A DNA stretch of 64,000 nt from an uncultured Pseudomonadota bacterium (GTDB taxonomy: Bacteria > Pseudomonadota > Alphaproteobacteria > RF32 > CAG-239): positions 9,121 through 73,120 of the forward strand of contig CASFJS010000001.1 in NCBI GenBank assembly GCA_949295085.1, in the 5' to 3' direction. Both the position numbers and the translations under genes were made by a program. The notes beneath the pieces were generated by a model, which did no database searches, was not told the origin of the DNA, and worked only from the letters and a program-made list of their open reading frames with translations. Positions 20,622 to 57,761 of this stretch are shown in pieces (the stretch's first letter is position 1; each line of letters starts with the position of its first letter).

Positions 20622-22274
20622 ATGACGTTGATGAAATATCAAAAATTTGATTGTGAGCAATATCTTTTAGATGAATATAAAAAAGACGGCAAAGAGCCGG
20701 TGTATTATCCGTGGATTGACGGCACAAGCCTCTTGGTTCCGAGTGCTTACAACGGCGATATGGAGACCTTTGAAGAAGATTTATTTGCTCATCCGGACAA
20801 GCAAAAAAAATATGACAGGTACAATGCCGCGCACCCCGACAACCCGATGGAAATACCGGAGCCGATTAAGTACCAAGATTTTTACATACTTCCCAAATTA
20901 AGCTATGTTCAAAAAGGCTTATCGGACAAAGAAATTATCCGTAAAACGCTGCAGGAAGTCCGGCGTCGTTATCGCGGCACGATCAAACAGACGGCGCGCA
21001 CCGCAAGAGAATATCCGCAGCAGTCATTCAGAGTCAAACTGACCAAAGAACACAAAGAAAAAATAAAAGCATTACATCATCGCCATCAACTCAAAAAATT
21101 AGGGCGGGGTATTGGCGAAATGTTTAAATTTACTGCCAAACAAACAGCAGAAATCTTAACCGGAGCGACCGGGGCTTTACCGGCCGTCACTTATTATCTT
21201 TTGGATAAAAAAGTTCATTTTGCCGAGAATAAGGCAAAAAGTTTTATCAACGAAAAAGCTTTGCCCTATATTCGTCGCGGCGCATTAAAAGCACTAATCC
21301 CGCTGAGTATATTTACGGCAATACGGGTAACGCCGGTTATAAAGCAAAACAAACAAGAAAAAATCGAAAGACAAGAGATTTTAGCTCGTGAACAGGCGGA
21401 AAAAGAGGCGTTCTTTGCCAAATACGACACGCGCAGCGAAGTTTTTTACCAAAATTATAAGCAGGCCAAAACCTTAGAATCAGAATTTCTGTGCCTGTTG
21501 TCGTGCTATGAAGATTATCACGAAAAAGCTTATAAATGCCAAGCCGGTGAATGGACAATCGGTTATGGTTCAAGACGTCTGGCCGACGGCCGCAAGGTGA
21601 CCAAAGGCATGACCATTACCCAAACCGAAGCGACACAAGCCGTTGCCAGACACATGGAAAAATATGTCTACCCACAATTTCGTCACATTACCAGAAAATT
21701 AACATCGGAACAACTCCTGGCTGTCAGTATGTTTATCTATAACACTGACGAAAGCGCATTTCAAAAATCAAAAGTCTGTTCGGCCGTTAATGCAAATGAA
21801 TCGGATGAGAAAGTCTGTGAAGCCTTTTCTTATTATCGCAGCGTCAACGGTAAGCGTAGTTATGGCCTGATTAACCGCCGCGGTTTTGAAGGACGTGTTT
21901 GGACATGCGGCGATATTTCATCTGTTTTAATACTGAGCCCGAATGTTGCCGGCAGCAAACATATCAAGTATTTTGAATATCCCAATGCCCGCAGCCGTGA
22001 TCCGATAGAAAACGACGATGGCACTTTTAGAGTGCGAAAAATCAAAGATGTTTCAAAAGATATGGAAAGATATAAAGTATCGTCAATTAATAAAAGTCTT
22101 CTCGGCAACATTCCCGAAGAATGCCGTAATGAATTGATAAAGAAATATGGCATCACCGAGCAAAACGGAACGTTGATTTGCCTAAACAACGACGCAAATG
22201 TCAACAAGCAAGGCAAAACAATTTCTTGGGAACAGGCGCAGGTACTGGCTCAAGCCCAAACACAAACTAAGTAG
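20622..22274 (+). CDS. membrane-associated protein with a central GH24 (T4/lambda-type) lysozyme domain (550 aa)
   Basis: Residues ~285-428 read YEDYHEKAYKCQAGEWTIGYGS...GMTITQTEA...LTSEQLLAVSMFIYNT...GLINRRGFEGRVW, matching the E-x8-D-x5-T lysozyme core. Hydrophobic segments lie at ~aa 180-195 and 222-238. The N- and C-terminal regions are of unknown family. Confidence 0.7.
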   Translation: MTLMKYQKFDCEQYLLDEYKKDGKEPVYYPWIDGTSLLVPSAYNGDMETFEEDLFAHPDKQKKYDRYNAAHPDNPMEIPEPIKYQDFYILPKLSYVQKGLSDKEIIRKTLQEVRRRYRGTIKQTARTAREYPQQSFRVKLTKEHKEKIKALHHRHQLKKLGRGIGEMFKFTAKQTAEILTGATGALPAVTYYLLDKKVHFAENKAKSFINEKALPYIRRGALKALIPLSIFTAIRVTPVIKQNKQEKIERQEILAREQAEKEAFFAKYDTRSEVFYQNYKQAKTLESEFLCLLSCYEDYHEKAYKCQAGEWTIGYGSRRLADGRKVTKGMTITQTEATQAVARHMEKYVYPQFRHITRKLTSEQLLAVSMFIYNTDESAFQKSKVCSAVNANESDEKVCEAFSYYRSVNGKRSYGLINRRGFEGRVWTCGDISSVLILSPNVAGSKHIKYFEYPNARSRDPIENDDGTFRVRKIKDVSKDMERYKVSSINKSLLGNIPEECRNELIKKYGITEQNGTLICLNNDANVNKQGKTISWEQAQVLAQAQTQTK

Positions 22275-36895: not shown

Positions 36896-37159
36896 ATGAA
36901 AATAAAACATATGCTCAAAAAAACAAACACCAAAATACAAACAGATTTTGAACAGGCACATTATATAATTCTGTCATTATATCGGGCATATTCTGTCGGC
37001 TTATTAAAAAATCCGGCACAAAAAGAAACATATATAACAGCCATGCGGCAAATAAAAAAAGATTTGCAGAATTTATCCGGAGACGAACTAATAGCCAAAG
37101 CCGTAAGAACTTATCAACCGGTTTTGCAAAAATTAAAAACCGGTGATATTAAGCGATAA
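36896..37159 (+). CDS. hypothetical small protein (87 aa)
   Basis: The ATG directly follows the pip stop, and a hairpin terminator follows the ORF. No family recognised. Confidence 0.4.
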   Translation: MKIKHMLKKTNTKIQTDFEQAHYIILSLYRAYSVGLLKNPAQKETYITAMRQIKKDLQNLSGDELIAKAVRTYQPVLQKLKTGDIKR

Positions 37160-37954: not shown

Positions 37955-38737
37955 ATGCAAATAAGTTTTATGAATGATGAATTTTCCAATATTGACGAGG
38001 CTCTGGCTTTTGCCAAAAAAAATCAGTTGCGTTATATTGAGCTGCGCAAAATCAATAATAAGGATATAACCGAGCTGAGCAAAGATGAAGCTTTCGCTCT
38101 GGCAGACAAAATATCTGCCGCGGGGATTCTTGTCTCCGCCCTGTCCTCACCTTTCCTCAAATGGAAAGAAGGCGCGCAAAGTTTTGCTTTTGGTAATCGC
38201 CCTGTTGCTTCTGAGGCAGAATATTTCACGGCTTTGATGGATTTGGCCGATATTTTCGGTGCCCCCAATATCCGTATTTATTCGTATTTAAAAAATGAAA
38301 GCTTATCACTTGAAGATTTAGGCCGGAAGCTGGATGTTTATAGCCAAATGGCTCTGGAACGCGGCTTAAATCTATTGCTGGAGAATGACAGTCTGTGCAA
38401 CATCGACACAATTAATAAAATGCACCAACTGTTTGAAATATATGGTTTTTCAAATATTTTTCCGTTGCTTGATTTAGGCAACACCATCGCTTCCGGTGAT
38501 GATTTCAAACCGCAAGAGTTACAAGACATCATCAATAAGTGTTTGTATTTTCATATAAAAGATTATGATGCCGAACTCAAACGCTTTGTCGTTGTTGGTG
38601 AAGGCCACGTCGACTATGAAAATATTTTGGCCGACAAACGGACGGATGCGGAATCAATCTTTTCCTTAGACACCCACACCGGCTATCCCGAAGACCTGCA
38701 AATGTCGCTTAATTTATTGCAAACCTGGGAAGATTAA
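37955..38737 (+). CDS. sugar phosphate isomerase/epimerase (xylose isomerase-like TIM barrel)
   Basis: 260 aa with a family-like alternating beta/alpha pattern. Motifs IRIYSY, LLLENDS and YFHIKDYD. Confidence 0.7.
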   Translation: MQISFMNDEFSNIDEALAFAKKNQLRYIELRKINNKDITELSKDEAFALADKISAAGILVSALSSPFLKWKEGAQSFAFGNRPVASEAEYFTALMDLADIFGAPNIRIYSYLKNESLSLEDLGRKLDVYSQMALERGLNLLLENDSLCNIDTINKMHQLFEIYGFSNIFPLLDLGNTIASGDDFKPQELQDIINKCLYFHIKDYDAELKRFVVVGEGHVDYENILADKRTDAESIFSLDTHTGYPEDLQMSLNLLQTWED

Positions 38738-38739
38738 CC

Positions 38740-39084
38740 CTATTTGTTAATCAACAGCTTAACAAAATTCATTAAGAAGACAATGGTCAAAAAGGTTATT
38801 GTCCTGGCTGCCAAAACGATTATACCGGCGCTCTGCCCCACAATAAACACTTGAACTAACAATGCCGCAACGACAGCGCATCCGGTTATAATCAGCCAAT
38901 AATTTTTATTTCCCAAAAAGATAAATGCACAAACGGCCGCCGATACGGACAGTGCATTTTCCCTGGCAAAACCGGCACACAGATTCACAAAAGACTTTAT
39001 ACTGCCTATATTCATTATATAGCCGATAGCTGCAATTATGATAACAGCCGCCAAAATTAAAAAATAAGTTTTTGTTTTACTCAT
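38740..39084 (-). CDS. small polytopic membrane protein (114 aa, about 4 TM)
   Basis: Hydrophobic throughout. The start overlaps the yejF stop by 8 nt, which suggests co-translation with the ABC genes. Confidence 0.6.
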   Translation of the reverse strand: MSKTKTYFLILAAVIIIAAIGYIMNIGSIKSFVNLCAGFARENALSVSAAVCAFIFLGNKNYWLIITGCAVVAALLVQVFIVGQSAGIIVLAARTITFLTIVFLMNFVKLLINK

Positions 39085-40711
39085 TTATCCCTCTGTATTT
39101 CCGTTGATAAGTCTCTTTAACACAATGTTTTTCAGTTATATTGGCCGAATAAATCAGTTGACGGGTATACTTATGTCGCGAATTTTTAAAAATTTTCATC
39201 GCCGAACGAAGCTCAATAATTTTACCGTCTTTCATAACGGCAATATCATCAGCCATAGCCTTGATAGCCCGCATATCATGTGATATAAACAAATAAGAAA
39301 TTCCTCGTTCTTGTTGAATTTTCTGCAACAACTTCAATATCTGTGCCGCAATCGTCACATCAAGCGACGACGTCGGCTCGTCCAAAATAAGAACCGACGG
39401 CTCAACGACCAAAGCTCTGGCTATGGCAATTCTTTGGCGTTGTCCGCCGGAAAATTCGTGAGGATATTTATCCAAAACAGAGTCTTTCAACCCAACCTCT
39501 CGTAATACTTTATAAATACGCGATAATTTGTCTTGGTTTGACAATTGCGGAAAGTGAACTCTTAACCCCTCCCCGATAATTTCGGCAACCGTCATCCGGG
39601 GATTAAGAGAATTATAAGGATCCTGAAAAACAATCTGCACCTGTTTATGCAGGCTTTTATGAGGAATTTCTTGAATGGATTGATTATTGAGAGTAATAAT
39701 ACCCTCAAATTTTATTAATCCGGCCAAAGCCATTCCCAAAGTCGTTTTGCCCGATCCGGATTCCCCGACCAGCCCCAATGTTTTTCCGGTCTTAAGTTTA
39801 AGTGACACACCGTGGAGAGCATAAAACCATTCGCTAACGCGTCCCCAAAAATTTTTCATCACCGGAAATTTAACCTCCAGACGCCGCACCTCGACGAAGC
39901 ACCCGCGGTTTGAATTGTTATTGTTTTTTAATACGTTAGACGAATAAATTAAAGACTTTGTATATTTTTCCGCAGGATGACCAAAAACAGCATGACAACT
40001 TCCCTGCTCGATGATTTTACCGCTTTTCATGACCAAAACTTTGTCGGCTATCCGATGTACAATGTTTAAATCATGACTAATAAAAATAACGGCCATTCCA
40101 AGCTCGTGTTTTAATTTAAGTAACAACTCCAAAATTTGAGAGGCCACCGTAACATCAAGAGCCGTTGTCGGCTCATCGGCGATTAAAAGATCCGGTTTGT
40201 TGGCAATGGCCATGGCAATCATAACGCGCTGCCTTTGTCCGCCGGAAAGCTCGTGCGGATAGGATTTAAAGCGGCGTTTTGCATTGGTAATGCCGGTTTG
40301 TTCCAACAAGCCGATAGCCTGTCGTCGGGCTTGACGGTACGATATTTTTTGATGAACCGACAAAACTTCGGTAATCTGCTTACCAATCGTATGCAAAGGA
40401 TTTAAGCTGGACATCGGTTCTTGAAAGACAAAGCCGATACGGTTTCCCCTAAATTCGCGTATATTCGGATTATTCAACAATTCAATACCCGAAAATTTAA
40501 CGGAACTTTCCGGTGAATGAAAAGCTTTCGGATACGGCAACAATCCTACAATGGATAAGGCTGTCAAAGATTTTCCCGAACCTGACTCTCCGACGATTCC
40601 CAGCACCTCGCCTCTTTCCAGACTAAAATTTACATTTTTAACCACCTTATATCGATAACCGCCGGAGCTGTTGAAGCCGATACTCAAATTGTTCACATCC
40701 AAAAGAGCCAT
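39077..40711 (-). CDS. yejF: fused double ATP-binding-cassette protein, YejF/Opp-Dpp type
   Basis: Two Walker A motifs ([16 protein letters not shown]) and two signature motifs ([18 protein letters not shown]). 544 aa. Confidence 0.88.
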
Positions 40712-41748
40712 CAGCGGTTTCTCCTTGTGTCAAAAGCATCGCGGATTCCTTCCCCTATAAATATCAACATTGTGAGGAGAGACGATAAAACGACAAAAAT
40801 CGAAATACCGATCCAGGGAGCCTGCAAATTATCTTTTCCCTGTCGCACCAAATCCCCCAGTGAAGGATATTCATGCGATAGCCCCAGACCGAGAAAATCC
40901 AATGCCGTAAGGGCAACGATGGATTCAGACATAATAAAAGGAATAAACGTTATTGAGGCAACCAAAGCATTGGGCAAAATATGCCTGAACATAATCCGGG
41001 TATTGCTAACCCCCAGAGCCTGCGCCGCCTTAACAAACTCAAAATTTCGCACGCGCAAAAACTCTGCCCTTACAACGCCTACCAATGCCGGCCAACTAAA
41101 AAAAAGCATAATAAACAACAAGATCCAGAAAGTCGGTTCAAAAACACTGGCAATAATAATCAAAATAAAAAGTTGCGGCAAAGATTCCCATATTTCCATA
41201 AAACGTTGAATAATGATATCCGTCTTACCGCCGATATACCCCTGCAAAGCTCCGATAATAATACCAATAGCCGAAGATAATGTCGTAAGAATGAAAGCAA
41301 AAACAACAGACAAGCGGATACCGTATAATATGCGGGCCAATATATCACGCCCCTCATCATCGGTTCCCAACCAATGATCCCTGTCCGGCGCCGAAGGTGT
41401 TGGCTTTTCAAGCTGGTAATCAACGGTATTAAAAGAATAAGGAATAAATGTAAACCACAAATCGCCGTGTTTTTGGATATTTTGTATGATAAAAGGGTCC
41501 TTATAATTTGCCTCGGTCGGAAAATCGCCGCCAAATGTTTGTTCTGTATAACTTTTGAACAATGGGAAAAACCACTCTCCCTTATACTTAACGGCCAAAG
41601 GCTTGTCATTAGCAATCAATTCGGCCGCCAAGCTCAAAAGCAGCAATCCGCCAAAAAGAATCAAAGACCAGTAAGCCCGGCGATTCCGGCAAAAAATATC
41701 AAATTTACCAAGCTTTGTCGCAGAATATTTGCTCTTGCGGTCAAACAA
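40711..41748 (-). CDS. yejE: ABC permease, YejE/DppC type
   Basis: 345 aa. N-terminal anchor plus a periplasmic loop. The EAA region reads AAQALGVSNTRIMFRHILPN. Confidence 0.85.
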   Translation of the reverse strand: MFDRKSKYSATKLGKFDIFCRNRRAYWSLILFGGLLLLSLAAELIANDKPLAVKYKGEWFFPLFKSYTEQTFGGDFPTEANYKDPFIIQNIQKHGDLWFTFIPYSFNTVDYQLEKPTPSAPDRDHWLGTDDEGRDILARILYGIRLSVVFAFILTTLSSAIGIIIGALQGYIGGKTDIIIQRFMEIWESLPQLFILIIIASVFEPTFWILLFIMLFFSWPALVGVVRAEFLRVRNFEFVKAAQALGVSNTRIMFRHILPNALVASITFIPFIMSESIVALTALDFLGLGLSHEYPSLGDLVRQGKDNLQAPWIGISIFVVLSSLLTMLIFIGEGIRDAFDTRRNR

Positions 41749-41766
41749 TCTTTTGCCCCTGCCGAA

Positions 41767-44634
41767 TTAGTTTTCAATAACCTTAATTTGGATATTAACA
41801 CCATCCGTATTGTTATTCTTTCCGGCCTCCGACAAACTCTGCCGAAACTGCCGTTTGAGTTCCTCCGGTGTTAATGGCCTTTCGTTTGTTACCGGCGCCT
41901 CCAAAATATCTTTAAGCTCAGGGTTCTGAGAAAAACTTTCAACCTCATGTGCCAGATTGTCCAAAGCCTGTTCGGCCTGCTCGGCCTCGGCCGCTTTTAG
42001 TGTTTTGCGAGCTTTGGCAATAGCTTCTTCTGCCGTGTTTTTTTCTTCCTGCGTATCAAACAACGTATCCGGAAGAACATCTTCGGCATCAGCCTCCGCA
42101 GATTCGCTTACGGGCTGCGATTCGACAGAAACGCCATCAGGCTGACCTGACGGAATTTCTTCCTCGGTAATATTCGTCGCTGCCGTATATTGAGACGACT
42201 GTTCATCCACCGTATTTTCCGTGGTTTGGTCAGCAGATTCCGGCGCTGTTTGATTCGTCACCTCAGGGGGCACACCGTCTGCCGGAGCAGCTGTTGCCGT
42301 CTCAGGGGTGTTCGGCACTTCTGATTCGGTAACATTTGTTTCCACAGAATTTGACGCATCTTCCGTTACGGGAGTTGGTTCGGCTTCAGGTTCGGCTTCC
42401 GGTGTATCGACCTCTCCCGCAGAAGAAGATATATCCGCTGCCGGTCCATCCGTTTTAGTTTCCGCAATGCCGGATTCTGCTTCTTGCGAATGGTTATCTT
42501 CTTTTTCCGCGATATTTGTAGTCATATCTGTAGTCATATCTTCGCTGCCTGACGGAGACAACTCCCCTTGTTGCGTTTCTTCCGCCGCGGCACTGATAGA
42601 CTTAACCTCCTGTTCCGGCACATCTTCAACAACTTGCGGCGAAACAACCGGCTTTGTTATTTTTTTCGGCTGCGCCTCGGACAGTGTTTGCAACGGCTCA
42701 CCAGTCTTATTTGTCTGTTTGGTTTGATAGTCCGCAACCACTCCCGTCTCATTAAAAGCCTGCCAGGCCATACTCCATTTGTCGAAATTTTCTGTCGCCA
42801 AATCAATAACATGTTTTTTGTACTTGTCCTGATCAATCATTTGTTGAATATGTTTCAGGTTTTTATCCGTCGTTTTTATGTTCGAAAATTCTTCACAAGG
42901 CGCATGCGTAAAGAAAAACGAATTTAAAATATCATCAACATCACACAAACTGTAATCTATATCGGCTTTTTGCATGCCGGCGGGATGTATGGCCAACATA
43001 ACCTGATGTTCACGTTGAAGTTGGCGATAATATTCGGTTTCTTTGGTGGACAATCCCTGCGGCGTATTTAATCCTTCTATAATGAGGGTTGTATCTTTCA
43101 AATAGCCCTTTTGATCAAGCTGTCGGATGAAATTATCCAGCGCCCCGAACAAACAATTAATCTGATCGGCATAAGCATTGCGCCGCTCGTCAATAGACGA
43201 AAACTTGGCAAATGCGACATTTTTTTCGCTTAGCCATTGTGACATATTTTTCAAATGACAAAATTCATCATAAATATATGTTTCCGAGGGCAAATCGACA
43301 ACGGCAATATACGCCTGATTCCCGGACTGACGCTCAAGGCTGTCAATAATTTGATCAAAAACCCTAAAAGAATTGACCGTATAAATTTCATCGGGCTTAA
43401 AATTCATACTGACTCTAAATTGCGCCGGCAGAATAAAATCAGCCATTTTCAATATCGGATTCAAATTATCAACAAGCCCTGTGGAGGTAAGCCATTGCGC
43501 CGCAAGCAGTATGGTGGATTGCGCCGGAGAAAGATCGCCGCCGCTCCAAACCGTCGGAGCATTAATTTTTTGTTTGCAGAGAGCAACGGCCAACCTATTA
43601 TCCAAATAACAAACATCAATTCCTCTGGATTGGAAGACATTAAGGGCATACTCGTTTTTTCTCAAAAATGAGTACAACGAGCTGTCTTTCAAATAAATTT
43701 TATCTTTTTGCAAGATGTCAAAAATAAAATACTTATCCCGAACGGCCGACAGTTGCATGTGTTCTTCCGCGGCTTTGTCGGAATCCGGATTAAGCGATGA
43801 CACAACATTCAAAAACGGATTGTCAACAGGCTTGGTCATGGCATTGGGGTATAAAATAAAATTATTTTTTGTAAAGAAACCTATCGCATTATTAAAACTT
43901 TCCTGAATGTTAATCTTCTGTTTTGACACCTGAGCCATTGCTGCCAGATTATTGGGCGATGTTAAACTGTTAAAAGACAAAAATATCAAATTTTTTCCGA
44001 CAGCCTCATCCTTTAATATCGGACCGGATGCAACAGTCTTAAAATACTGCGAAGATGTATTGGCATAAGCTTCATTTAACACCCACCCCATGCAAAGAGC
44101 CATTAATATTGTCAGATACAGCAAAAACGAACGTCTGAGTTTATTGAAAAGCAACCAACAGATAACAAAGATAACACTCCCTATGATCCACAGCGAATAC
44201 TTATACAAAACAAGATTAACGTCATCACTGAAAACGCCGTTAAAAATAATCAGTAATCCGGAATGCTTTTCAAAGGAGGCAAACTGATTAACAAAGGCCA
44301 CACACAACAACGCAACCAGTAAAGCCAGAAACAGGTTCTGCAACCCGTGAATAAAAGAAGCCGTGAACATAAGAAGAAAACTGAACAAAGCAATCCCTGT
44401 ATAAATGTACAAAGCTTCGGTATTCAAAAAAAACGAAGAAGTAAAAATATTATAATTGCCGGAATTAGCAAACAACGTAAAATCAAGTGAAATCAAAAGC
44501 GCACAAAGAATGGTTTTTATGATAAGATCAAACAAATACCTGAAAACACGCATTTTTTTACTTGCTTGCACGGAGGCGGCACGAATTTGTTTTGCAGAAA
44601 ATTTTCGCGGATCTTCCAGATGAATATCATCCAT
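41767..44634 (-). CDS. large polytopic membrane protein (955 aa) with an extracytoplasmic domain and an acidic low-complexity tail
   Basis: ATG start. About 6 TM helices within aa 35-195, a ~420-aa soluble domain, a ~235-aa E/T/P/S/A-rich tract, and a helical C-terminus. It ends 18 nt upstream of yejE. Confidence 0.75.
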   Translation of the reverse strand: MDDIHLEDPRKFSAKQIRAASVQASKKMRVFRYLFDLIIKTILCALLISLDFTLFANSGNYNIFTSSFFLNTEALYIYTGIALFSFLLMFTASFIHGLQNLFLALLVALLCVAFVNQFASFEKHSGLLIIFNGVFSDDVNLVLYKYSLWIIGSVIFVICWLLFNKLRRSFLLYLTILMALCMGWVLNEAYANTSSQYFKTVASGPILKDEAVGKNLIFLSFNSLTSPNNLAAMAQVSKQKINIQESFNNAIGFFTKNNFILYPNAMTKPVDNPFLNVVSSLNPDSDKAAEEHMQLSAVRDKYFIFDILQKDKIYLKDSSLYSFLRKNEYALNVFQSRGIDVCYLDNRLAVALCKQKINAPTVWSGGDLSPAQSTILLAAQWLTSTGLVDNLNPILKMADFILPAQFRVSMNFKPDEIYTVNSFRVFDQIIDSLERQSGNQAYIAVVDLPSETYIYDEFCHLKNMSQWLSEKNVAFAKFSSIDERRNAYADQINCLFGALDNFIRQLDQKGYLKDTTLIIEGLNTPQGLSTKETEYYRQLQREHQVMLAIHPAGMQKADIDYSLCDVDDILNSFFFTHAPCEEFSNIKTTDKNLKHIQQMIDQDKYKKHVIDLATENFDKWSMAWQAFNETGVVADYQTKQTNKTGEPLQTLSEAQPKKITKPVVSPQVVEDVPEQEVKSISAAAEETQQGELSPSGSEDMTTDMTTNIAEKEDNHSQEAESGIAETKTDGPAADISSSAGEVDTPEAEPEAEPTPVTEDASNSVETNVTESEVPNTPETATAAPADGVPPEVTNQTAPESADQTTENTVDEQSSQYTAATNITEEEIPSGQPDGVSVESQPVSESAEADAEDVLPDTLFDTQEEKNTAEEAIAKARKTLKAAEAEQAEQALDNLAHEVESFSQNPELKDILEAPVTNERPLTPEELKRQFRQSLSEAGKNNNTDGVNIQIKVIEN

Positions 44635-44752
44635 ATTCTTACCCTCATGTTAATCAAAAGCCTAAAACTCTGCTTAATCCTAACCGATATTTAATTTAGT
44701 TAAAACAAAAATTATGTCTGTTTGCACAACTTCTGCAAAATATTGCGGATAC

Positions 44753-44785
44753 AAAAAAGAGACCGAAACCAAACGTTTCGGCCTC
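44753..44785 (-). terminator. rho-independent terminator of rpsD
   Basis: Minus strand: gaggccgaaac-gtttg-gtttcggtctc followed by TTTTTT. Confidence 0.65.
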
Positions 44786-44804: not shown

Positions 44805-45416
44805 CTATCTTGAATAAAACTCAATAACCATATTCGGTTGCATAAGAGATGCGTACGGTACATCTTCAAATTTAGGCACAAAAGCATATTTGGCAACCAT
44901 CTTTTTAGCATCCAGCTCCACATACGCCGGAACATCGCGCGAAGCAGATTCCAACGCGGCGATAACCATGGGCAGCTGTTTGGACTTAGTACGTACCTCT
45001 ACAACATCACCGGCTTTCAAGGCATAAGACGGAATATTAACTTTTTTGCCGTTAACGGTAACATGGCCGTGATTAACAAACTGACGAGCGGCAAAAATCG
45101 TCGGCACAAATTTTGCTTTGTAAACAATATTGTCCAACCGTGATTCCAACAGGCCGATAAGGTTCTCGGCCGCGTCGCCGGAGCGCCGAATAGCCTCAAC
45201 ATAATATTTATGAAACTGCTTTTCGGAAACATTGCCGTAATAAGTTTTCAACTTTTGCTTGGCTGACAATTGCTCACCGTAATCGGTCGGTTTCTTTTTC
45301 CTTTGTCCGTGCTGTCCCGGAGCATATTCTCTCTTAGCAACGGAACCGTTCGGAGCCCCCCAGATAACACCTAATTGGCGTTCTTTTTTCTTCTTTGTGG
45401 TAACAATACTTTTCAT
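44805..45416 (-). CDS. rpsD: 30S ribosomal protein S4
   Basis: 203 aa with a typical S4 N-terminus and S4 RNA-binding domain ([10 protein letters not shown]). Confidence 0.95.
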
Positions 45417-45631: not shown

Positions 45632-47389
45632 ATGGATTATGATACCCTGTTTCAAAGAGCCCTGCAATATTTTGATGCTGGCAATTTAGTTGCGGCCGAA
45701 GACACCGCGCGACAGATTATTCGCGCGGTTCCCGATCAACCGGATGTCCTGAATCTGCTGGGGCTTATCGCCCAAAACAAAGGACTGCACCAACAGGCAG
45801 GCCCCTATTTTGCCGCGGCCATCCGGCAGCAACCGGAAAATGCTGTTTTTTACTTCAATCTGGCCTTTTCTTTGCGTGCCGCTGGAAAAGATACCGAAGC
45901 TTTATATAATTTTAACAAAGTACTGCAATTGGCTCCTCACATTAAAGAAACCTATAATGAAATAGCTTTTATTTTTGAAAACCGACATCAGTTGGATGAA
46001 GCACGCCGATATTGGCAAACAGCTTTGCAGATGGATAATCGCTACATCATTGCCGCTGTTAATCTGGCCAACAGTTATCGTCTTGATAATCCGTCAAAAG
46101 CCGAAGAAGATTTGCGCCGCCTCAGCTTGGACTGGCCGGAAATATCTTTAATATGGTATGATTTAGCGTGGCTGGCTTATAATCGTAAGGATTTGCAAGA
46201 GGCTTTGCATTGCCTTGAAAAAGCCGCTTCCCTGCACCCAAAATCGGATGTCGTTCATTACCTTTTCGGATTAATTTTTCAAGAAAGCGGACAAAAAAAA
46301 GCCGCCGTCGAAAATTTTGAACAAGCTATCACCCTTAACCCCGATAACATCAACGCATTATTACATCTGGCTGATATCTATAGTCTGGACAACAATTACC
46401 GACCGGCCGAAAAACTTTATAAACGTATTTTAGAATTGGCACCGGATAATTTTGCCGCCTGTAATAATTATGCCGAAATGCTTTATCGGCAAAAACGTCT
46501 GCCCGAAGCTCTGGAAACATACCGCCGAGCCGTTATTATCAACGCACAATCCGCCGAGGTTTGCAATAACCTTGGCGTGATTTTAAAAGATCTTAAAGAA
46601 TATACGGAGGCTGCAGCCTTATTCATAAACGCCCTGAAACTTAATTCTCATCAAACCGAAACGGCTGTTAATCTGGCAGAAACCATAACTCTGCTGGCAC
46701 AAACGGATGATTCTGCCGCTTTACGCATTGCTCAAAATTGGCACAATCTTTTTCCGAACGATCCGTTTGCCACCCACACATTAGCCGCCCTGAAAGGAGA
46801 AACCGTTGCCGATACTCAGGTTTTTATTGAAAAGTTGTTTGACAATTTCGCTGATAATTACGAATTGGTTATGCAAAATCTGGATTATCAAGCTCCGCTG
46901 GCTGTCCGAAGAATTGCTGGACCTTTGGTCGGTCGTATTGCGGATCTGGGGTGTGGTTCGGGGCTTGTTGGTCAAGCTGTTAAAACGGATCAAAATTATC
47001 TGATCGGAGTTGATATATCATCAAAAATGCTGCAACAGGCAAAGGCCAAGCAGGTTTATGATGAGTTGATTAAAGAAGATATCCTGACTTTTTTACACCG
47101 CCGCTTTGATTTTGACTGGGTCTTGGCGATTGATGTCGCCGGCTACTTGGGGGTATTGGATGAATTTGTGGCGTCCTGCCGCGGTAAAAATCTTATTTTT
47201 TCAATTGAAACTTTAGCTGGCGACCAAGTTTGCCAACGTCAAAAAAACGGCCGTTTCAAACACAATCCGCAAGCCGTACAAAATCTTTTACGGCAAAATA
47301 ATTTCACAAACATCACAATAGAAAATTTATCCCTGCGCAATGAAAACGAACATCCGGTCGCAGGTTGTATAATCAAAGCCCAACCTTAA
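45632..47389 (+). CDS. TPR-repeat protein fused to a class I SAM-dependent methyltransferase
   Basis: The N-terminal ~380 aa carry TPR periodicity. The C-terminal domain has motif I, IADLGCGSGLVG. Confidence 0.8.
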   Translation: MDYDTLFQRALQYFDAGNLVAAEDTARQIIRAVPDQPDVLNLLGLIAQNKGLHQQAGPYFAAAIRQQPENAVFYFNLAFSLRAAGKDTEALYNFNKVLQLAPHIKETYNEIAFIFENRHQLDEARRYWQTALQMDNRYIIAAVNLANSYRLDNPSKAEEDLRRLSLDWPEISLIWYDLAWLAYNRKDLQEALHCLEKAASLHPKSDVVHYLFGLIFQESGQKKAAVENFEQAITLNPDNINALLHLADIYSLDNNYRPAEKLYKRILELAPDNFAACNNYAEMLYRQKRLPEALETYRRAVIINAQSAEVCNNLGVILKDLKEYTEAAALFINALKLNSHQTETAVNLAETITLLAQTDDSAALRIAQNWHNLFPNDPFATHTLAALKGETVADTQVFIEKLFDNFADNYELVMQNLDYQAPLAVRRIAGPLVGRIADLGCGSGLVGQAVKTDQNYLIGVDISSKMLQQAKAKQVYDELIKEDILTFLHRRFDFDWVLAIDVAGYLGVLDEFVASCRGKNLIFSIETLAGDQVCQRQKNGRFKHNPQAVQNLLRQNNFTNITIENLSLRNENEHPVAGCIIKAQP

Positions 47390-53525: not shown

Positions 53526-56500
53526 CTAATTAAGTTTGTTAAGAGCTTTTGCCAAAACATAATACAAACGTCCGAGATCTGCCCCCGAAATAACAGCCAT
53601 CAAAGCTGCCGAATGCTCATTTTTCTTTGATTTATCAACCAAAGCCTCAAACTCGCTCATATATGTATTTACCAATTTGCGCAAATCGTCATTTTTTTCA
53701 AACTCTTTCCGCAATGCCGCAATCTGAGTACTTGTCATATTTTTGGCTATAGCCCGGATGAAGACTTCGGTATCTCCGTTATAAAACTTTTTCCATAAAT
53801 CTTCCTCATCTTTCGGATTAAGCAATCTGCTGATATCAACAGAAACACTTTCCAAGCGGTTAATAATTTTTCCGGCATCTTTAAGAAAAGTATCAACCTT
53901 AATGTCTTTATAGGCTGCTGTTAACCCTTTCATGGCTTTCTCGGCCTTAAGGGCGTTTTCGCTCAAAGTTTTGGTCTGAATATTAACCGTATCGTTAAAG
54001 CGCAGACTTTCTTTGACAATTTCCTGTCCTTGAGTCTCAAAAGCCTTTCCGGCATCAACCAAATTGCTGATACACTTTTCCACCTTATTTGTCGTATCAT
54101 CGGCCAGCGCCGTTAACGCCTGAGATTGCTTAACAAACACCTCGCCGGAAGACAAAATCGTATTTGAAATACGCTCGGCATTGGCCGCAATCTCGTTAAC
54201 GGAAGCCCTGAGCTTGTCGCCGGATTTTTCCAAATGTGTCGCACTGAGCCTGGCCGCATCCTCCATCTCCAGTCCCAGCTTTTTAAGATCTTTACCCAAG
54301 CTGCTTACTTTGTCATAAGCATCATTGGCCCTTTCTGCCAATTGATTTGAGGTATCGCTCAAAACCGTATTAAAGCAATCAACAAGTTTTTTGGTATCAT
54401 CAGAAATTTTAACCATCTTATCGCTTTGTGCCGAGATCAAATGATTAATCTCAACCACGCCGGTTGAAGTCTCAGCCGTCACGGTATTAAATCCGGCAAT
54501 GTATTTTTCATATTCATTAAATACCCCGCCGATATTCTCAACCGAATGAAAAATCGTGGTATCCAAATCTTCGCTGCATTGGCTGAGGCGTAAACTGACC
54601 TGATCAATGTTTTTGACGGAATCTTTTGAGGCCTTATTAATCGCGTCACATGCTTTTAACAAGCGATCACCCAACACGTCAAATTCATAAGAAAGCTTGT
54701 TGGTAGCCTCAAAAATACCATTGGTGTTATCTTTAAATCCCGCATTGATTTCCTGTATTTTTGCCGCCGTTTCAACCGTTGCGTCGGTCAAATATTTATA
54801 TTGTTGTGCCAAAGATGCCTCGCCGAGACGAGCCTGAGTAGCCAGATTATTGACCACCTCGGATATATTGTTTTTCTGACTTTCCAGCATTCCGGCAATA
54901 CTCTCGCCCTGTGAAGCCAGTTTAACTCCGATTGTCTCCATATACTTGGTCTGTTCATTCATCTTTTGCCACAAATTATCATTATCTTTGGCCAAACTCT
55001 GATAAAGATCTTTAAGCCTGGTCGAACTGCCGCTGATTTGTTGTACCATATCGCCGACATTATCTTTCATCATGGCCACGGTCGTATTAAAACCGGCCAA
55101 ATGCTCATCGATTGTGGTATTAACGCTTCCGAGTTTATTAATTGCCTCATCAACGACTTTTTCGGTCTGTTGGTGTTTGTTTGTCAGCATCTTTTCAATA
55201 TCGGCCAATTCTTGAATTGATTTTTGAGAATTTGCCACAACCGTTTCGGCGCGGCGACCGGTATCTTCTTCCAAAATAACTAATCTGGCAAACAATTTAT
55301 CGGCACTTTCTTCAATACCTGACATTTGTTTTTTCAAAATATCGGCCATTTTATTTGTATTTTCCGAAATTTTATCACAATAGGCATAAAAATCGGCCTC
55401 CTGCTGCCGGAACAAAATATTAAGATTTGCTGTTTTTTCATCCAAGCCCGAAGCCACTTCACTGATATATTTGGCCGCAGATTGTGAAATATCGCTGATA
55501 TTGATACTCTTAGCTTCAAAATCGCTGATTGATTTATTCAATATGGTTTCAGAGTTGGCCGTTGTTTCGTTGAGTTTTTGCGTCTGTTCCACCAGTGTTT
55601 TATTAATTTGTTCACTGACGCTGCCGATATGCGTCGCCAAAGCCTCCATATTTTGCGCCTGTTTGGTCAAAATATCTTCAAATTGTGTAACTTTTGCCAA
55701 AGTCTTATTGGCCGAGGTATCAAACACGCCGGCCTGCTCGGCCAAATTACTGTTAATGCTCTGGCTTTTGGCAATGGCATCATTACATTGCCCCAGCATT
55801 TTAGCGATATTTGATTTCAACAGCTCCAGAGTATTAACCGCATCTCTTTCCAGACTCCCCGACGCTGTTGACAATTCGTCTATCTGTCGTTTCAGCTCGT
55901 TTTTAATTTCTTCAACCCTTGCGGCCGTATCGGTAATATGTTTCTGCTGCTGAGCCAGCGATGCTTCGCTGATTTGACTCTGTGTTACCACAATGGATGA
56001 TGCCTCTGTCAGATTATTGGTGTATTTTTGCATCAACCCGCTAATCTGATTCATGCTTTCAACCGATTGGGCCGTCTGCACCATCAGGTTTTCCGTTGCG
56101 GTATTAATCCCCTTTCCGACTTCCTGCAACTGATTCATCCCGGCGGCAACGGATTTCTGCAAATTATCATAACGTTTATGAATAACATCGGTTAAATCAA
56201 CAATTTTATTAACACCGTCATGACTGATACGCTCAAAATCGGAAGTCTTTTCCTGCAACGTTCCGACATAAGACAGAATATCGCTGTTGGCAGCCAAAAC
56301 TTTTTCGTCCAGAGACGCAATATTGGCATTCAACGCCGTTTCAACTTCTTGCATGGAAGCAACCACCTTATCCGAAACACCGTTTAAATTTGAAACCTGC
56401 AAGGCCACGGCATCTTCCAGATTAGAGCTCCGCACCATGAGCCGGTCCAGCTCTTGGGCAATCATCTCGCCATGCGCCGTAAACTTTTTACTGACGCCGT

Positions 56501-57704
56501 CCGTTTTTTCTTCCAACACTTTCACTAAAGAAACAATATCTTTATTACGTTTGGCCAACGCCTCATTCACTTTTTGAATCTGCAAATCAATCGTGTCATC
56601 AATATTGTTCATGCTGTTTTTGAGGTTGTTGTTGATAATACCGATATTGGCCACGGCCGATTTGGTAATTTCCTCCGTCTTGTCTTTAGCTTCTTTGGCA
56701 GCAGCTTCCAACACCTGATAAAGCTGTTGATTATGTTTTTGCAACGCATCGTCAAGACTGGTTATTTCTTTGCTTGTCGTCTCTTTCAAATTTTCACACT
56801 TATTAACCGCCGCATCGGCAGCTTGCCGGAGTTGTGATGTCTGAGCCGTAAGCATATTATGCACGGCATTAAACGTCACATTGGCTCGTTCGACAAAGTT
56901 TTTTAAATTTTCCCCGGTCTTTGCGGCATCTTCGGCCGAACCGGACAATATGGTTTTAAAATCTTCGGATGTCTGCTTAATTTCCCGCAGCGACGGCAAC
57001 AATCTTTCAAATACATCTTTGAGCGAATTTTCCAAATTGTTACCGCCGGAAATAAATTCCTGATTGATTTTGGCAAAATTTTGCGTTGAATCTTGAGCCT
57101 TGTTCAACAAATTTTCAAAATTAGCCATCAAAAATTTAACCCCCTCGCTCAATTCGACAATAGTCTTTGACGAGTAATTATCCAAAGTCCCTATCAACTT
57201 GGCAAACTCATCAATGTTTCCTTTAATGGAATCCTTAATTTTTGATGTTTGCTCATGTGCCAGCTTGGAAACCTGCTGCAGCTCCACAACTTGCGAACGA
57301 ATGGCATCTGCCATGGCTTTAGCCGTCTGCGGGGCACCCTCCTCCGGGTAAACAAGCTGATTCATATAAGCGCGCAAAAACTTCGCTTCATGCTTAAACG
57401 ACGTTCCCCTGTCAATATAAGCCATCACCACCCAGATAATAGCCAGAGGCAAGGTCACACCGGCCAAAAAGCCGCCAAACTCATCCGGCATCATCAAAAA
57501 TAAATTTGACCATCCGAAAAACTGCGTAATATAGATTAACACAATGGCAAACCATACCACGCTGACACTAATCATCAGCTTATGCAGATTGTTATTCAAC
57601 CATGATTCCGGTTCTTCAATCTCCGCCGGAGGTGTATTTTCTTTCATAAATTGCGGCAAAACCGTAACATTACCGTCGGTCGTCTTGGCAGCTCTCTCGG
57701 ACAT
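53526..57704 (-). CDS. giant membrane-anchored alpha-helical/coiled-coil protein (1,392 aa from ATG 57704)
   Basis: The track ORF starts at TTG 57737, and I trimmed it to MSERAAKTTDG. Numbering below follows the 1403-aa track ORF. Two or three TM helices lie at aa ~55-108. About 1,150 aa of heptad-like, Q/N/E/K/S/T-rich sequence follows, with internally duplicated motifs. The globular-looking C-terminal ~110 aa includes DLWKKFYNGDTEVF... Confidence 0.8.
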   Translation of the reverse strand: MSERAAKTTDGNVTVLPQFMKENTPPAEIEEPESWLNNNLHKLMISVSVVWFAIVLIYITQFFGWSNLFLMMPDEFGGFLAGVTLPLAIIWVVMAYIDRGTSFKHEAKFLRAYMNQLVYPEEGAPQTAKAMADAIRSQVVELQQVSKLAHEQTSKIKDSIKGNIDEFAKLIGTLDNYSSKTIVELSEGVKFLMANFENLLNKAQDSTQNFAKINQEFISGGNNLENSLKDVFERLLPSLREIKQTSEDFKTILSGSAEDAAKTGENLKNFVERANVTFNAVHNMLTAQTSQLRQAADAAVNKCENLKETTSKEITSLDDALQKHNQQLYQVLEAAAKEAKDKTEEITKSAVANIGIINNNLKNSMNNIDDTIDLQIQKVNEALAKRNKDIVSLVKVLEEKTDGVSKKFTAHGEMIAQELDRLMVRSSNLEDAVALQVSNLNGVSDKVVASMQEVETALNANIASLDEKVLAANSDILSYVGTLQEKTSDFERISHDGVNKIVDLTDVIHKRYDNLQKSVAAGMNQLQEVGKGINTATENLMVQTAQSVESMNQISGLMQKYTNNLTEASSIVVTQSQISEASLAQQQKHITDTAARVEEIKNELKRQIDELSTASGSLERDAVNTLELLKSNIAKMLGQCNDAIAKSQSINSNLAEQAGVFDTSANKTLAKVTQFEDILTKQAQNMEALATHIGSVSEQINKTLVEQTQKLNETTANSETILNKSISDFEAKSINISDISQSAAKYISEVASGLDEKTANLNILFRQQEADFYAYCDKISENTNKMADILKKQMSGIEESADKLFARLVILEEDTGRRAETVVANSQKSIQELADIEKMLTNKHQQTEKVVDEAINKLGSVNTTIDEHLAGFNTTVAMMKDNVGDMVQQISGSSTRLKDLYQSLAKDNDNLWQKMNEQTKYMETIGVKLASQGESIAGMLESQKNNISEVVNNLATQARLGEASLAQQYKYLTDATVETAAKIQEINAGFKDNTNGIFEATNKLSYEFDVLGDRLLKACDAINKASKDSVKNIDQVSLRLSQCSEDLDTTIFHSVENIGGVFNEYEKYIAGFNTVTAETSTGVVEINHLISAQSDKMVKISDDTKKLVDCFNTVLSDTSNQLAERANDAYDKVSSLGKDLKKLGLEMEDAARLSATHLEKSGDKLRASVNEIAANAERISNTILSSGEVFVKQSQALTALADDTTNKVEKCISNLVDAGKAFETQGQEIVKESLRFNDTVNIQTKTLSENALKAEKAMKGLTAAYKDIKVDTFLKDAGKIINRLESVSVDISRLLNPKDEEDLWKKFYNGDTEVFIRAIAKNMTSTQIAALRKEFEKNDDLRKLVNTYMSEFEALVDKSKKNEHSAALMAVISGADLGRLYYVLAKALNKLN

Positions 57705-57761
57705 CCGATATATTCCCCATACAAATAAATTCCCCAAAGCCCACCATCAGGCTCCGGGGTT

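Follow-up and report, generated by a model that had tools for sequence, protein, structure and literature searches.

The Yej system of Escherichia coli, encoded by yejABEF, belongs to the ATP-binding cassette (ABC) importers of peptides and microcins and is composed of a periplasmic binding protein (YejA), two permeases (YejB and YejE) and a fused double ATPase (YejF). Yej systems have a role in antimicrobial-peptide resistance (PMC4994006, PMC8406287), and the YejBEF-YepA transporter of Agrobacterium tumefaciens serves muropeptide recycling with a binding protein, YepA, encoded at an unlinked locus (PMC9790009). A second set of envelope proteins is of concern here, namely the membrane-anchored phospho-headgroup transferases (described in bioRxiv 10.64898/2026.09.23.753746); the canonical catalytic residue sets of LtaS, EptA and YejM are given in PMC7576196. 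PbgA of the Enterobacteriaceae, also named YejM or LapC, is described as a lipid A-binding pseudo-hydrolase scaffold (PMC13125744), and its catalysis is disputed (PMC7576196 versus PMC13125744). Relatives of both kinds of protein are found together in the DNA analysed in this work, a stretch of 64,000 nucleotides (the window) from an uncultured alphaproteobacterium (GenBank assembly GCA_949295085.1, contig CASFJS010000001.1, positions 9,121 to 73,120), where yejE and yejF follow the gene of a 955-residue membrane protein, here called BIG, and precede that of a 114-residue protein with four transmembrane (TM) helices, here called TM114.

The best explanation obtained for this arrangement, which we hold with middling confidence, is a clade-specific envelope operon, in which a non-catalytic, PbgA-like BIG and a working YejEF importer core would be linked by co-regulation. 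The evidence comes from the predicted fold of BIG and the loss of its catalytic-type motifs, from the identity and conservation of YejE and YejF, and from the distribution of the three genes among related genomes.

Fold and catalytic motifs of BIG

BIG has no Pfam or NCBIfam match of its own, and searches of PDB sequences with BIG, its family profile, the profile of its periplasmic domain and the homolog P0024 returned low-complexity or chance matches only. The Pfam family Sulfatase is weakly matched by 7 of 32 BIG homologs, with P0024 over the threshold (25.5 bits, the cut-off being 25). An AlphaFold2 model of BIG, for which 32 homologs were used, has high confidence from residue 30 to residue 630, with a predicted local distance difference test (pLDDT) score >85 over most of them. 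When this model was compared with the PDB by Foldseek, the top matches were full-length PbgA/YejM (6xlp_A, with an E-value of 9e-9 over 628 columns, and 6v8q_A), and below these came LtaS, numerous sulfatases, phosphonate monoester hydrolases and MCR-1. Altogether, 197 PDB chains matched at E≤1e-3, and the best 50 listed all belong to the alkaline-phosphatase/sulfatase superfamily. According to the model, BIG is a membrane protein of the PbgA/LtaS/EptA fold, and neither a permease nor a binding-protein homolog.

An earlier note on this DNA, made from the sequence alone, had described BIG as a polytopic protein of 955 residues. This stands for the five N-terminal TM helices (residues 30-191); the remainder of the protein is extracytoplasmic in the model. 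The soluble domain and the tail are placed in the periplasm because a basic stretch precedes TM1 and six cysteines of the soluble domain (C342, C353, C459, C494, C564 and C580) are invariant in the alignment of BIG sequences linked to yejEF. The cytoplasmic loops of the model are just 2-3 residues long. The most conserved segments of BIG are NQFASFEKHSGL at residues 116-127 and LDFTLFANSGNY at residues 50-61, together with E73, and they form a patch at the periplasmic ends of TM1-TM3, with LDFTLFANSGNY at the end of TM1 and NQFASFEKHSGL at the end of TM3. The least conserved part is the linker after TM5 (residues 192-212, mean conservation 0.31), which has no conserved arginine.

Both termini of BIG carry features of their own. 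At the N-terminus, M1 and D3 do not vary among 36 yejEF-linked sequences. The motif to which they belong, M-[DEQH]-D-[IV]-x-[ILV], is conserved in every yejEF-linked BIG and missing from the outgroup, i.e., the distant BIG homologs outside the yejEF-linked clade; this motif may serve as a docking peptide or a degron, or may reflect a constraint acting at the mRNA level. The tail, counted from residue 633 (323 residues), contains 22% D+E and 6% K+R, and an acidic tail of 30-320 residues was present in every member of the BIG family examined. The C-terminal motifs LEAPV..LSPEELK.. and NIxIKVIEN are conserved in the closer relatives, and IEVKVIEN and DVIPPALL recur as short motifs in the tails of other family members.

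The catalytic-type motifs were traced through the family alignment. In the long outgroup forms of BIG, strand 1 ends in L(S/A/G)DH, the next helix starts with a serine, and HLxLPHYPY and IHGDKG each follow a further strand; the order and secondary-structure setting of these motifs are those of the Glu/Asp, the Thr/Ser nucleophile, the His and the Asp-His of LtaS, EptA and MCR-1. At the same positions the BIG of the window reads LSFNSL, Asn276, VDLPSETY and IEGLNT. The long outgroup forms keep between two and four of the four catalytic-type features, P0255, P0265 and P0274 are intermediate, and 68 of the 69 scoreable yejEF-linked sequences keep none; the nucleophile position is occupied by Asn in 70 of 72 aligned sequences. 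No alternative conserved constellation of Ser/Thr/Cys plus His/Asp stands out among the invariant residues of BIG. Since none of the catalytic residues is present, transferase activity of the window protein and of its clade is unlikely. Judging from these alignments, we infer that the BIG of the clade is non-catalytic and descends from a membrane-anchored phospho-headgroup transferase or hydrolase that was probably active.

YejEF, the operon and its distribution

YejE matches the NCBIfam model PRK15021 (microcin C ABC transporter permease) end to end with 428 bits and an E-value of 2e-128, just under the cut-off of 439, and is 52.5% identical to E. coli YejE over its full length (337 residues); with E. 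coli YejB, it presents 29% identity over 89 residues only. Pfam assigns it BPD_transp_1 and a weak OppC_N match, and its closest solved chains are the C-type permeases OppC and DppC (8z21_B, 8z1v_B, 8wd9_C, 8j5q_C). YejF has the NCBIfam family YejF as its best match (622 bits, below the equivalog cut-off of 834), contains two ABC_tran domains according to Pfam, and is 46.5% identical to E. coli YejF over 525 residues. By sequence comparison, YejE and YejF are clear Yej orthologs.

Conservation was measured as identity to the window proteins at the loci of relatives. YejE presents 67-85% identity (median 73%, 65 loci), YejF 55-73% (median 61%), the ribosomal protein S4 encoded by the neighbouring rpsD 69-95% (median 84%), and BIG 27-69% (median 35%). 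Both Walker A motifs and both signature motifs are kept in all 63 full-length YejF relatives. On these sequence identities YejE is nearly as conserved as S4, which points to very strong constraint on the ABC core.

The earlier note had found only yejE and yejF locally, and this result was reproduced: neither phmmer on the open reading frames (ORFs) of the window nor six-frame tblastn at E≤10 returned a yejA or a yejB, remnants included. With the ORFs of the window and those of 71 related loci as targets, and likewise in the six-frame search of the window, the E. coli YejA query had no match and the E. coli YejB query matched only yejE itself. No yejA or yejB lies within 10 kb on either side of the locus in 64 related genomes, and the best 120 YejE homologs listed include only members of the yejEF-linked clade. 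Should these genomes really have no yejA and yejB at all, a peptide-family ABC importer would operate on one permease type without the canonical binding protein, and such a single-permease importer would challenge the standard subunit rule of the Opp/Dpp/Yej systems. No example of a system with a single permease is known to us from this family.

The layout of four ORFs reported in the earlier note, a Yej set that lacks components and forms a tight operon with a large protein and a mini-protein, is present as described (Table 1). The BIG stop is followed after 18 nt by the TTG start of yejE, with an AGGGG Shine-Dalgarno sequence placed 8 nt ahead of this start codon; the overlap of yejE and yejF is 1 nt, and TM114 overlaps yejF by 8 nt, with its ATG overlapping the yejF stop (ATGAGTAA). 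The bounds given by the note also proved correct: rpsD has its own terminator, a stem followed by a T-run, which sets the upstream boundary of the BIG operon, and a convergent gene of the AP_endonuc_2 family ends just downstream. A candidate promoter is placed between the rpsD terminator and the BIG start, and an Rfam scan of 38-46 kb yielded zero matches. Given this layout, BIG, yejE and yejF are most likely co-transcribed and translationally coupled.

The distribution of BIG was scanned with one genome per GTDB species. The BIG family was found in 64 species-level genomes, every one of an uncultured alphaproteobacterium of the gut or rumen, among them 'Proteobacteria bacterium CAG:495', Candidatus Scatocola faecigallinarum and bins labelled Azospirillum sp. 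UMGS63. The clade probably falls in GTDB order RF32; NCBI places Ca. Scatocola, one of its members, in Rhodospirillales. At every locus uncut by a contig end the three genes are contiguous, and the BIG-yejE spacing ranges from 4 to 29 nt. The wider neighbourhood of the clade is syntenic, comprising the TPR-methyltransferase gene, rpsD, AP_endonuc_2, GNAT and hydrolase genes. In four loci (L053, L056, L057 and L070) no rpsD lies upstream any more; the TM114 gene lies directly before BIG there, with the trio intact; in L005-L007 the downstream neighbours differ and the trio is likewise kept. The co-occurrence of BIG with a yejEF-only arrangement, proposed for checking in the earlier note, is hence found across the clade, and the possibility left there of an arrangement unique to one genome and undergoing pseudogenisation is not borne out, the reading frames being intact and strongly conserved. 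The note had further taken the architecture to be undescribed, and no account of a yejEF-only operon or of the BIG family was found in the literature searched.

The BIG family itself extends beyond this clade. A word-index search returned 36 BIG homologs, and its repetition with a broader profile returned the same 36 proteins; the tiny family that these results suggested was overturned when 1.84 billion cluster representatives were searched exhaustively with HMMER, which gave 151 representatives at E≤1e-30 and 402 at E≤1e-10, members of 1000-1500 residues among them. The named members from this search are all 'hypothetical protein [Alphaproteobacteria bacterium]'. The contexts of eight distant members (L074-L081) were inspected, and no Yej component and no TM114 homolog was present beside BIG in any of them. 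In L074, L075/L076 and L077, BIG and the TPR-methyltransferase gene are divergently arranged and rpsD is absent; L080 has the TPR gene, rpsD, BIG and then a convergent dehydrogenase gene; L079 has rpsD, BIG and then a convergent gene; and L078 and L081 have unrelated neighbours. According to the gene calls, the TPR-methyltransferase gene adjoins BIG in L074, L075, L077 and L080 as well as in the ingroup loci L001-L005, and it may be an older functional partner of the BIG family.

A TPR/rpsD-BIG backbone is thus common to the outgroup and the clade, and yejEF, together with TM114, is specific to the gut clade. Because the distant BIG homologs adjoin the TPR-methyltransferase gene or rpsD without yej genes, yejEF would have been added behind a pre-existing BIG: from these gene orders, BIG was most likely there first, and yejEF was placed behind it in the ancestor of the gut clade. 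This bears on the proposal of the earlier note that the large protein occupies the positions of yejA and yejB as their replacement, a proposal that is not supported, given a BIG family older and wider than the yejEF link and the lack of permease or binding-protein homology in BIG; in function, BIG may still stand in for the receptor or the second permease.

The end of the operon is variable, the constant core being BIG-yejE-yejF. TM114 homologs were found in 37 relatives' loci (38 sequences with the window), which is why TM114 is considered a real gene; Y62, F98 and N106 are invariant in their alignment. The place of the TM114 gene varies: it can follow yejF directly, lie convergent on the other strand downstream, or immediately precede BIG; about 25 clade genomes have no copy of it within 10 kb. 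The TM114 family has no significant Pfam match (best E-value 0.004), 18 homologs having been scanned. A metagenome scan with the TM114 family returned three loci, of which the single long one (L083) has the same layout. In about 30 loci, a YfbR-like HD-domain gene, not present at this position in the window, follows yejF; it overlaps the yejF end in many relatives (L001 15341-15865) and is sometimes followed by TM114.

Explanations of the BIG-YejEF linkage

In the explanation that we favour, BIG and yejEF would be two parts with separate histories. BIG, without catalysis and by analogy with PbgA rather than with the transferases, would bind or sense a membrane lipid or another envelope component, or be a scaffold for it, at the periplasmic face of the inner membrane, and YejEF would import peptides, muropeptides or antimicrobial peptides. 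The missing binding protein is perhaps encoded elsewhere, for which the unlinked YepA of Agrobacterium offers a precedent; for the missing YejB, either the gene would lie at another locus, an unusual case, or a YejE homodimer would take its place. BIG and YejEF would then most likely be tied together by the co-regulation of two envelope-maintenance functions in an operon that often also carries TM114 and/or the HD-domain gene. Co-regulation is plausible given that the known Yej roles, i.e., peptide and microcin uptake, antimicrobial-peptide resistance and muropeptide recycling, are all related to the envelope.

Several points weigh against this explanation. "PbgA-like" denotes an analogy of architecture and not orthology, because sequence similarity is not significant (the BIG-family profile against E. 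coli YejM reaches an hhalign probability of 17%) and the Foldseek TM-scores of BIG are modest, at 0.29-0.49 when normalised to the target. The equivalence of the outgroup motifs with catalytic residues comes from motif order, predicted secondary structure and the family alignment rather than from a structural superposition, and the direction of the rearrangement (gain of yejEF in the clade versus its loss in the outgroup) is derived without a rooted tree. All solved YejE relatives are paired with a B-type permease. Lastly, a tight linkage that resists rearrangement, and an active-site loss that coincides with yejEF, fit a physical complex at least as well.

One alternative is that yejEF landed behind BIG once and has been kept there by regional synteny, the two being functionally unrelated and the canonical YejABEF being completed by unlinked yejA and yejB. 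The whole neighbourhood is indeed syntenic across the clade, BIG and YejE evolve at very different rates, and BIG, to judge from the outgroup sequences, works without yejEF in other lineages. Synteny, however, does not account for a trio that survives differing neighbours in L005-L007, L053, L056, L057 and L070, and the BIG-yejE spacing leaves no room for an independent promoter or terminator. In addition, a split between yejB and yejE would be unusual, as the permease genes are adjacent in E. coli and Agrobacterium (PMC9790009). Such passive adjacency is considered unlikely.

A similarly doubtful alternative takes BIG, possibly with TM114, as a physical subunit of a YejE2-YejF machine, with BIG capturing the substrate instead of YejA and a YejE homodimer standing for the YejB/YejE pair. 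Capture would involve the pseudo-enzyme domain, the patch at the membrane interface or the polyanionic tail, and the substrate could be, e.g., cationic host peptides or a lipid-linked molecule. Although BIG evolves far faster than YejE (median identity of 35% versus 73%), belongs to a family that exists, acidic tail included, without yejEF, and has neither ABC-permease homology nor an EAA-type coupling loop in its very short cytoplasmic loops, a physical machine would agree with the missing yejA and yejB within 10 kb in 64 genomes, with the short BIG-yejE gaps and their Shine-Dalgarno sequence, and with a module that stays together where its flanks change. It would also agree with the complete loss of catalytic residues and the new TM-interface and N-terminal motifs, which are found only in the yejEF-linked clade, and with TM114, which co-occurs only with yejEF-linked BIG.

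The more specific proposal of a single-permease importer independent of a binding protein is distinctly unlikely in our judgement. Here the dead enzyme BIG would deliver the substrate to the YejE of a YejE2-YejF transporter, its N-terminus would contact YejF, and TM114 would be an accessory subunit; the substrate would be captured by the periplasmic-leaflet patch, the vestigial active-site pocket or the polyanionic tail of BIG.

Very little probability is given to BIG still being an enzyme of the LtaS/EptA/OpgB/BcsG kind, with phospho-headgroup transferase or hydrolase activity at a non-canonical active site. In fold and in membrane-anchored architecture BIG agrees with that group, its outgroup relatives keep the DH, S, HxxLPHxPY and HGD motifs, and catalysis is disputed even for PbgA (PMC7576196 versus PMC13125744). 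Nevertheless, the four features are lost in all but one of the scoreable clade members, Asn takes the nucleophile position in nearly all sequences aligned, and no second Ser/Thr/Cys-plus-His/Asp site is apparent in the invariant residues.

An ABC machine that exports or anchors the acidic protein, as suggested in the earlier note, was rejected, given that YejE and YejF are of the importer type, that the nearest solved relatives of YejE are the importers OppC and DppC, and that BIG has a membrane anchor of its own. The degraded importer on its way to loss that the note also offered, to which two of four canonical components missing nearby would correspond, is effectively refuted because YejE and YejF are so strongly constrained, with YejE conserved near the level of S4 across >60 species and both ATPase motif sets kept in YejF, and by reading frames that are intact everywhere with translational coupling preserved.

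Whether or not yejA and yejB are present, the BIG family is an unannotated and fairly large one. Its members would form a natural series that begins with LtaS/EptA-like membrane enzymes, probably active, and ends in a PbgA-like form with all activity lost, which is useful for studying how PbgA-type sensors arise from transferases. Antimicrobial-peptide resistance and outer-membrane homeostasis, to which Yej and PbgA-type proteins alike are connected, are relevant to gut colonisation.

Features of the region and comparison with known systems

The coordinates of the operon, of the regions of BIG and of the adjoining features are presented in Table 1.

Table 1. Genes, signals and BIG regions at the yejEF locus, in window coordinates.
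Feature	Position	Strand	Basis or description
BIG, 955-residue ORF	41767..44634	-	ORF list; first gene of the operon
BIG residues 1-29	44548..44634	-	Cytoplasmic N-terminus; predicted helix 9-26; motif M-[DEQH]-D-[IV]
BIG residues 30-191	44062..44547	-	Five TM helices: 30-58, 72-92, 96-118, 137-165, 168-191
BIG residues 213-630	42745..43998	-	Predicted periplasmic alpha/beta domain of the alkaline-phosphatase/sulfatase fold, without catalytic-type residues
BIG residues 632-867	42034..42741	-	Acidic, low-complexity, disordered periplasmic tail of ~235 residues; pLDDT 30-40
BIG residues 868-955	41770..42033	-	C-terminal helices 867-902, 905-911, 923-940; pLDDT 50-70
yejE, 345 residues, TTG start	40711..41748	-	C-type permease of a Yej/Opp/Dpp (PepT-family) ABC importer
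yejF, 544 residues	39077..40711	-	Fused double ATPase
TM114, 114 residues	38740..39084	-	Four-TM protein of an unannotated family; frequent, not obligatory companion of the module
rpsD	44805..45416	-	Directly upstream of the operon
rpsD intrinsic terminator	44759..44785	-	11-bp stem (6 G-C pairs), then TTTTTT
Candidate sigma-70-type promoter	44711..44739	-	TTTGCA-17-CATAAT; consensus scan, 9/12 matches; weak
TPR + methyltransferase gene	45632..47389	+	Pfam TPR, Methyltransf; divergent from rpsD
AP_endonuc_2-family gene	end at 38737		Pfam; convergent; downstream bound of the operon

Downstream of the module, one relative (L004, 16429-20710) carries Microviridae-type genes (REP_ORF2-G2P and a Phage_F capsid gene) beside AP_endonuc_2, which are probably an integrated microvirus. 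Other relatives carry a Zeta_toxin gene with a gene of 89-92 residues, near GNAT (L001 17403-18598, and L002) or near AP_endonuc_2 (L003 16446-17661). The window has only an ORF of 87 residues (36896-37159, + strand) near the equivalent place, likened to that pair by position alone.

Elsewhere in the window, a fatty-acid synthesis cluster (accA, biotin carboxylase, KAS II, KAS III and an NMO/FabK-like gene) occupies 8-20 kb, and Rnf complex genes lie at ~27.5-31.6 kb. A 550-residue protein with a Phage_lysozyme domain is encoded at 20622-22274 (+ strand) in an otherwise housekeeping region, and a 1403-residue ORF at 53526-57737 (- strand) has no Pfam match at E≤1e-5. The G+C content is mostly 49-54% in the first ~20 kb, with one 2-kb block at 44%, and 38-50%, mostly 40-47%, at 20000-64000.

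In comparison with the YejABEF system of E. coli, yejE and yejF are likewise adjacent and overlapping, whereas the operon here starts with an unrelated membrane protein and has no yejA or yejB locally. The solved PepT-family importers OppBCDF and DppBCDF combine a B-type with a C-type permease, and here the C type alone is found locally.

With LtaS, EptA/MCR-1, BcsG and OpgB, BIG shares a membrane anchor and an extracytoplasmic domain of the alkaline-phosphatase-superfamily fold, the latter as predicted by the model. Distant members of the BIG family keep motifs like those of LtaS, EptA and the sulfatases, i.e., an acidic residue and His after strand 1, Ser, HxxLPHxPY and HGD. The Thr/Ser nucleophile and the Glu/Asp and Asp/His metal ligands of the LtaS/EptA type are missing from the BIG of the window and of its clade.

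The closest likeness in architecture is with PbgA/YejM/LapC, which has five N-terminal TM helices followed by a periplasmic domain of the arylsulfatase/LtaS-like fold, as BIG does in its model, and which is the best full-length structural match of BIG (~620-630 Foldseek columns). The feature taken to mark PbgA, TM helices joined to a soluble domain, was defined from PMC13125744. In the hhalign alignment, YejM and BIG both have, at the same place, a sequence other than the canonical SDHG-type metal motif (IITAGRGIP in YejM and IIEGLNTP in BIG), and this stretch is the sole part that hhalign aligns between the BIG family and E. coli YejM. YejM keeps Asp268 and Thr302, and the BIG equivalents, by alignment and secondary structure, are S/N/L and Asn276; PbgA has a basic linker with tandem arginines, the lipid-binding region after TM5 (PMC6921655 and bioRxiv 10.1101/2020.12.07.415661), where BIG has no conserved Arg. 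PbgA also governs LpxC turnover by way of LapB/FtsH. Orthology of BIG and YejM was rejected on the hhalign probability given above. BIG thus resembles PbgA/YejM in architecture and fold but differs from its members in homology, in the basic linker and at Asp268/Thr302, and it is further set apart from PbgA by its long acidic tail and C-terminal helices, by its occurrence in uncultured Alphaproteobacteria, and by its operon with yejEF.

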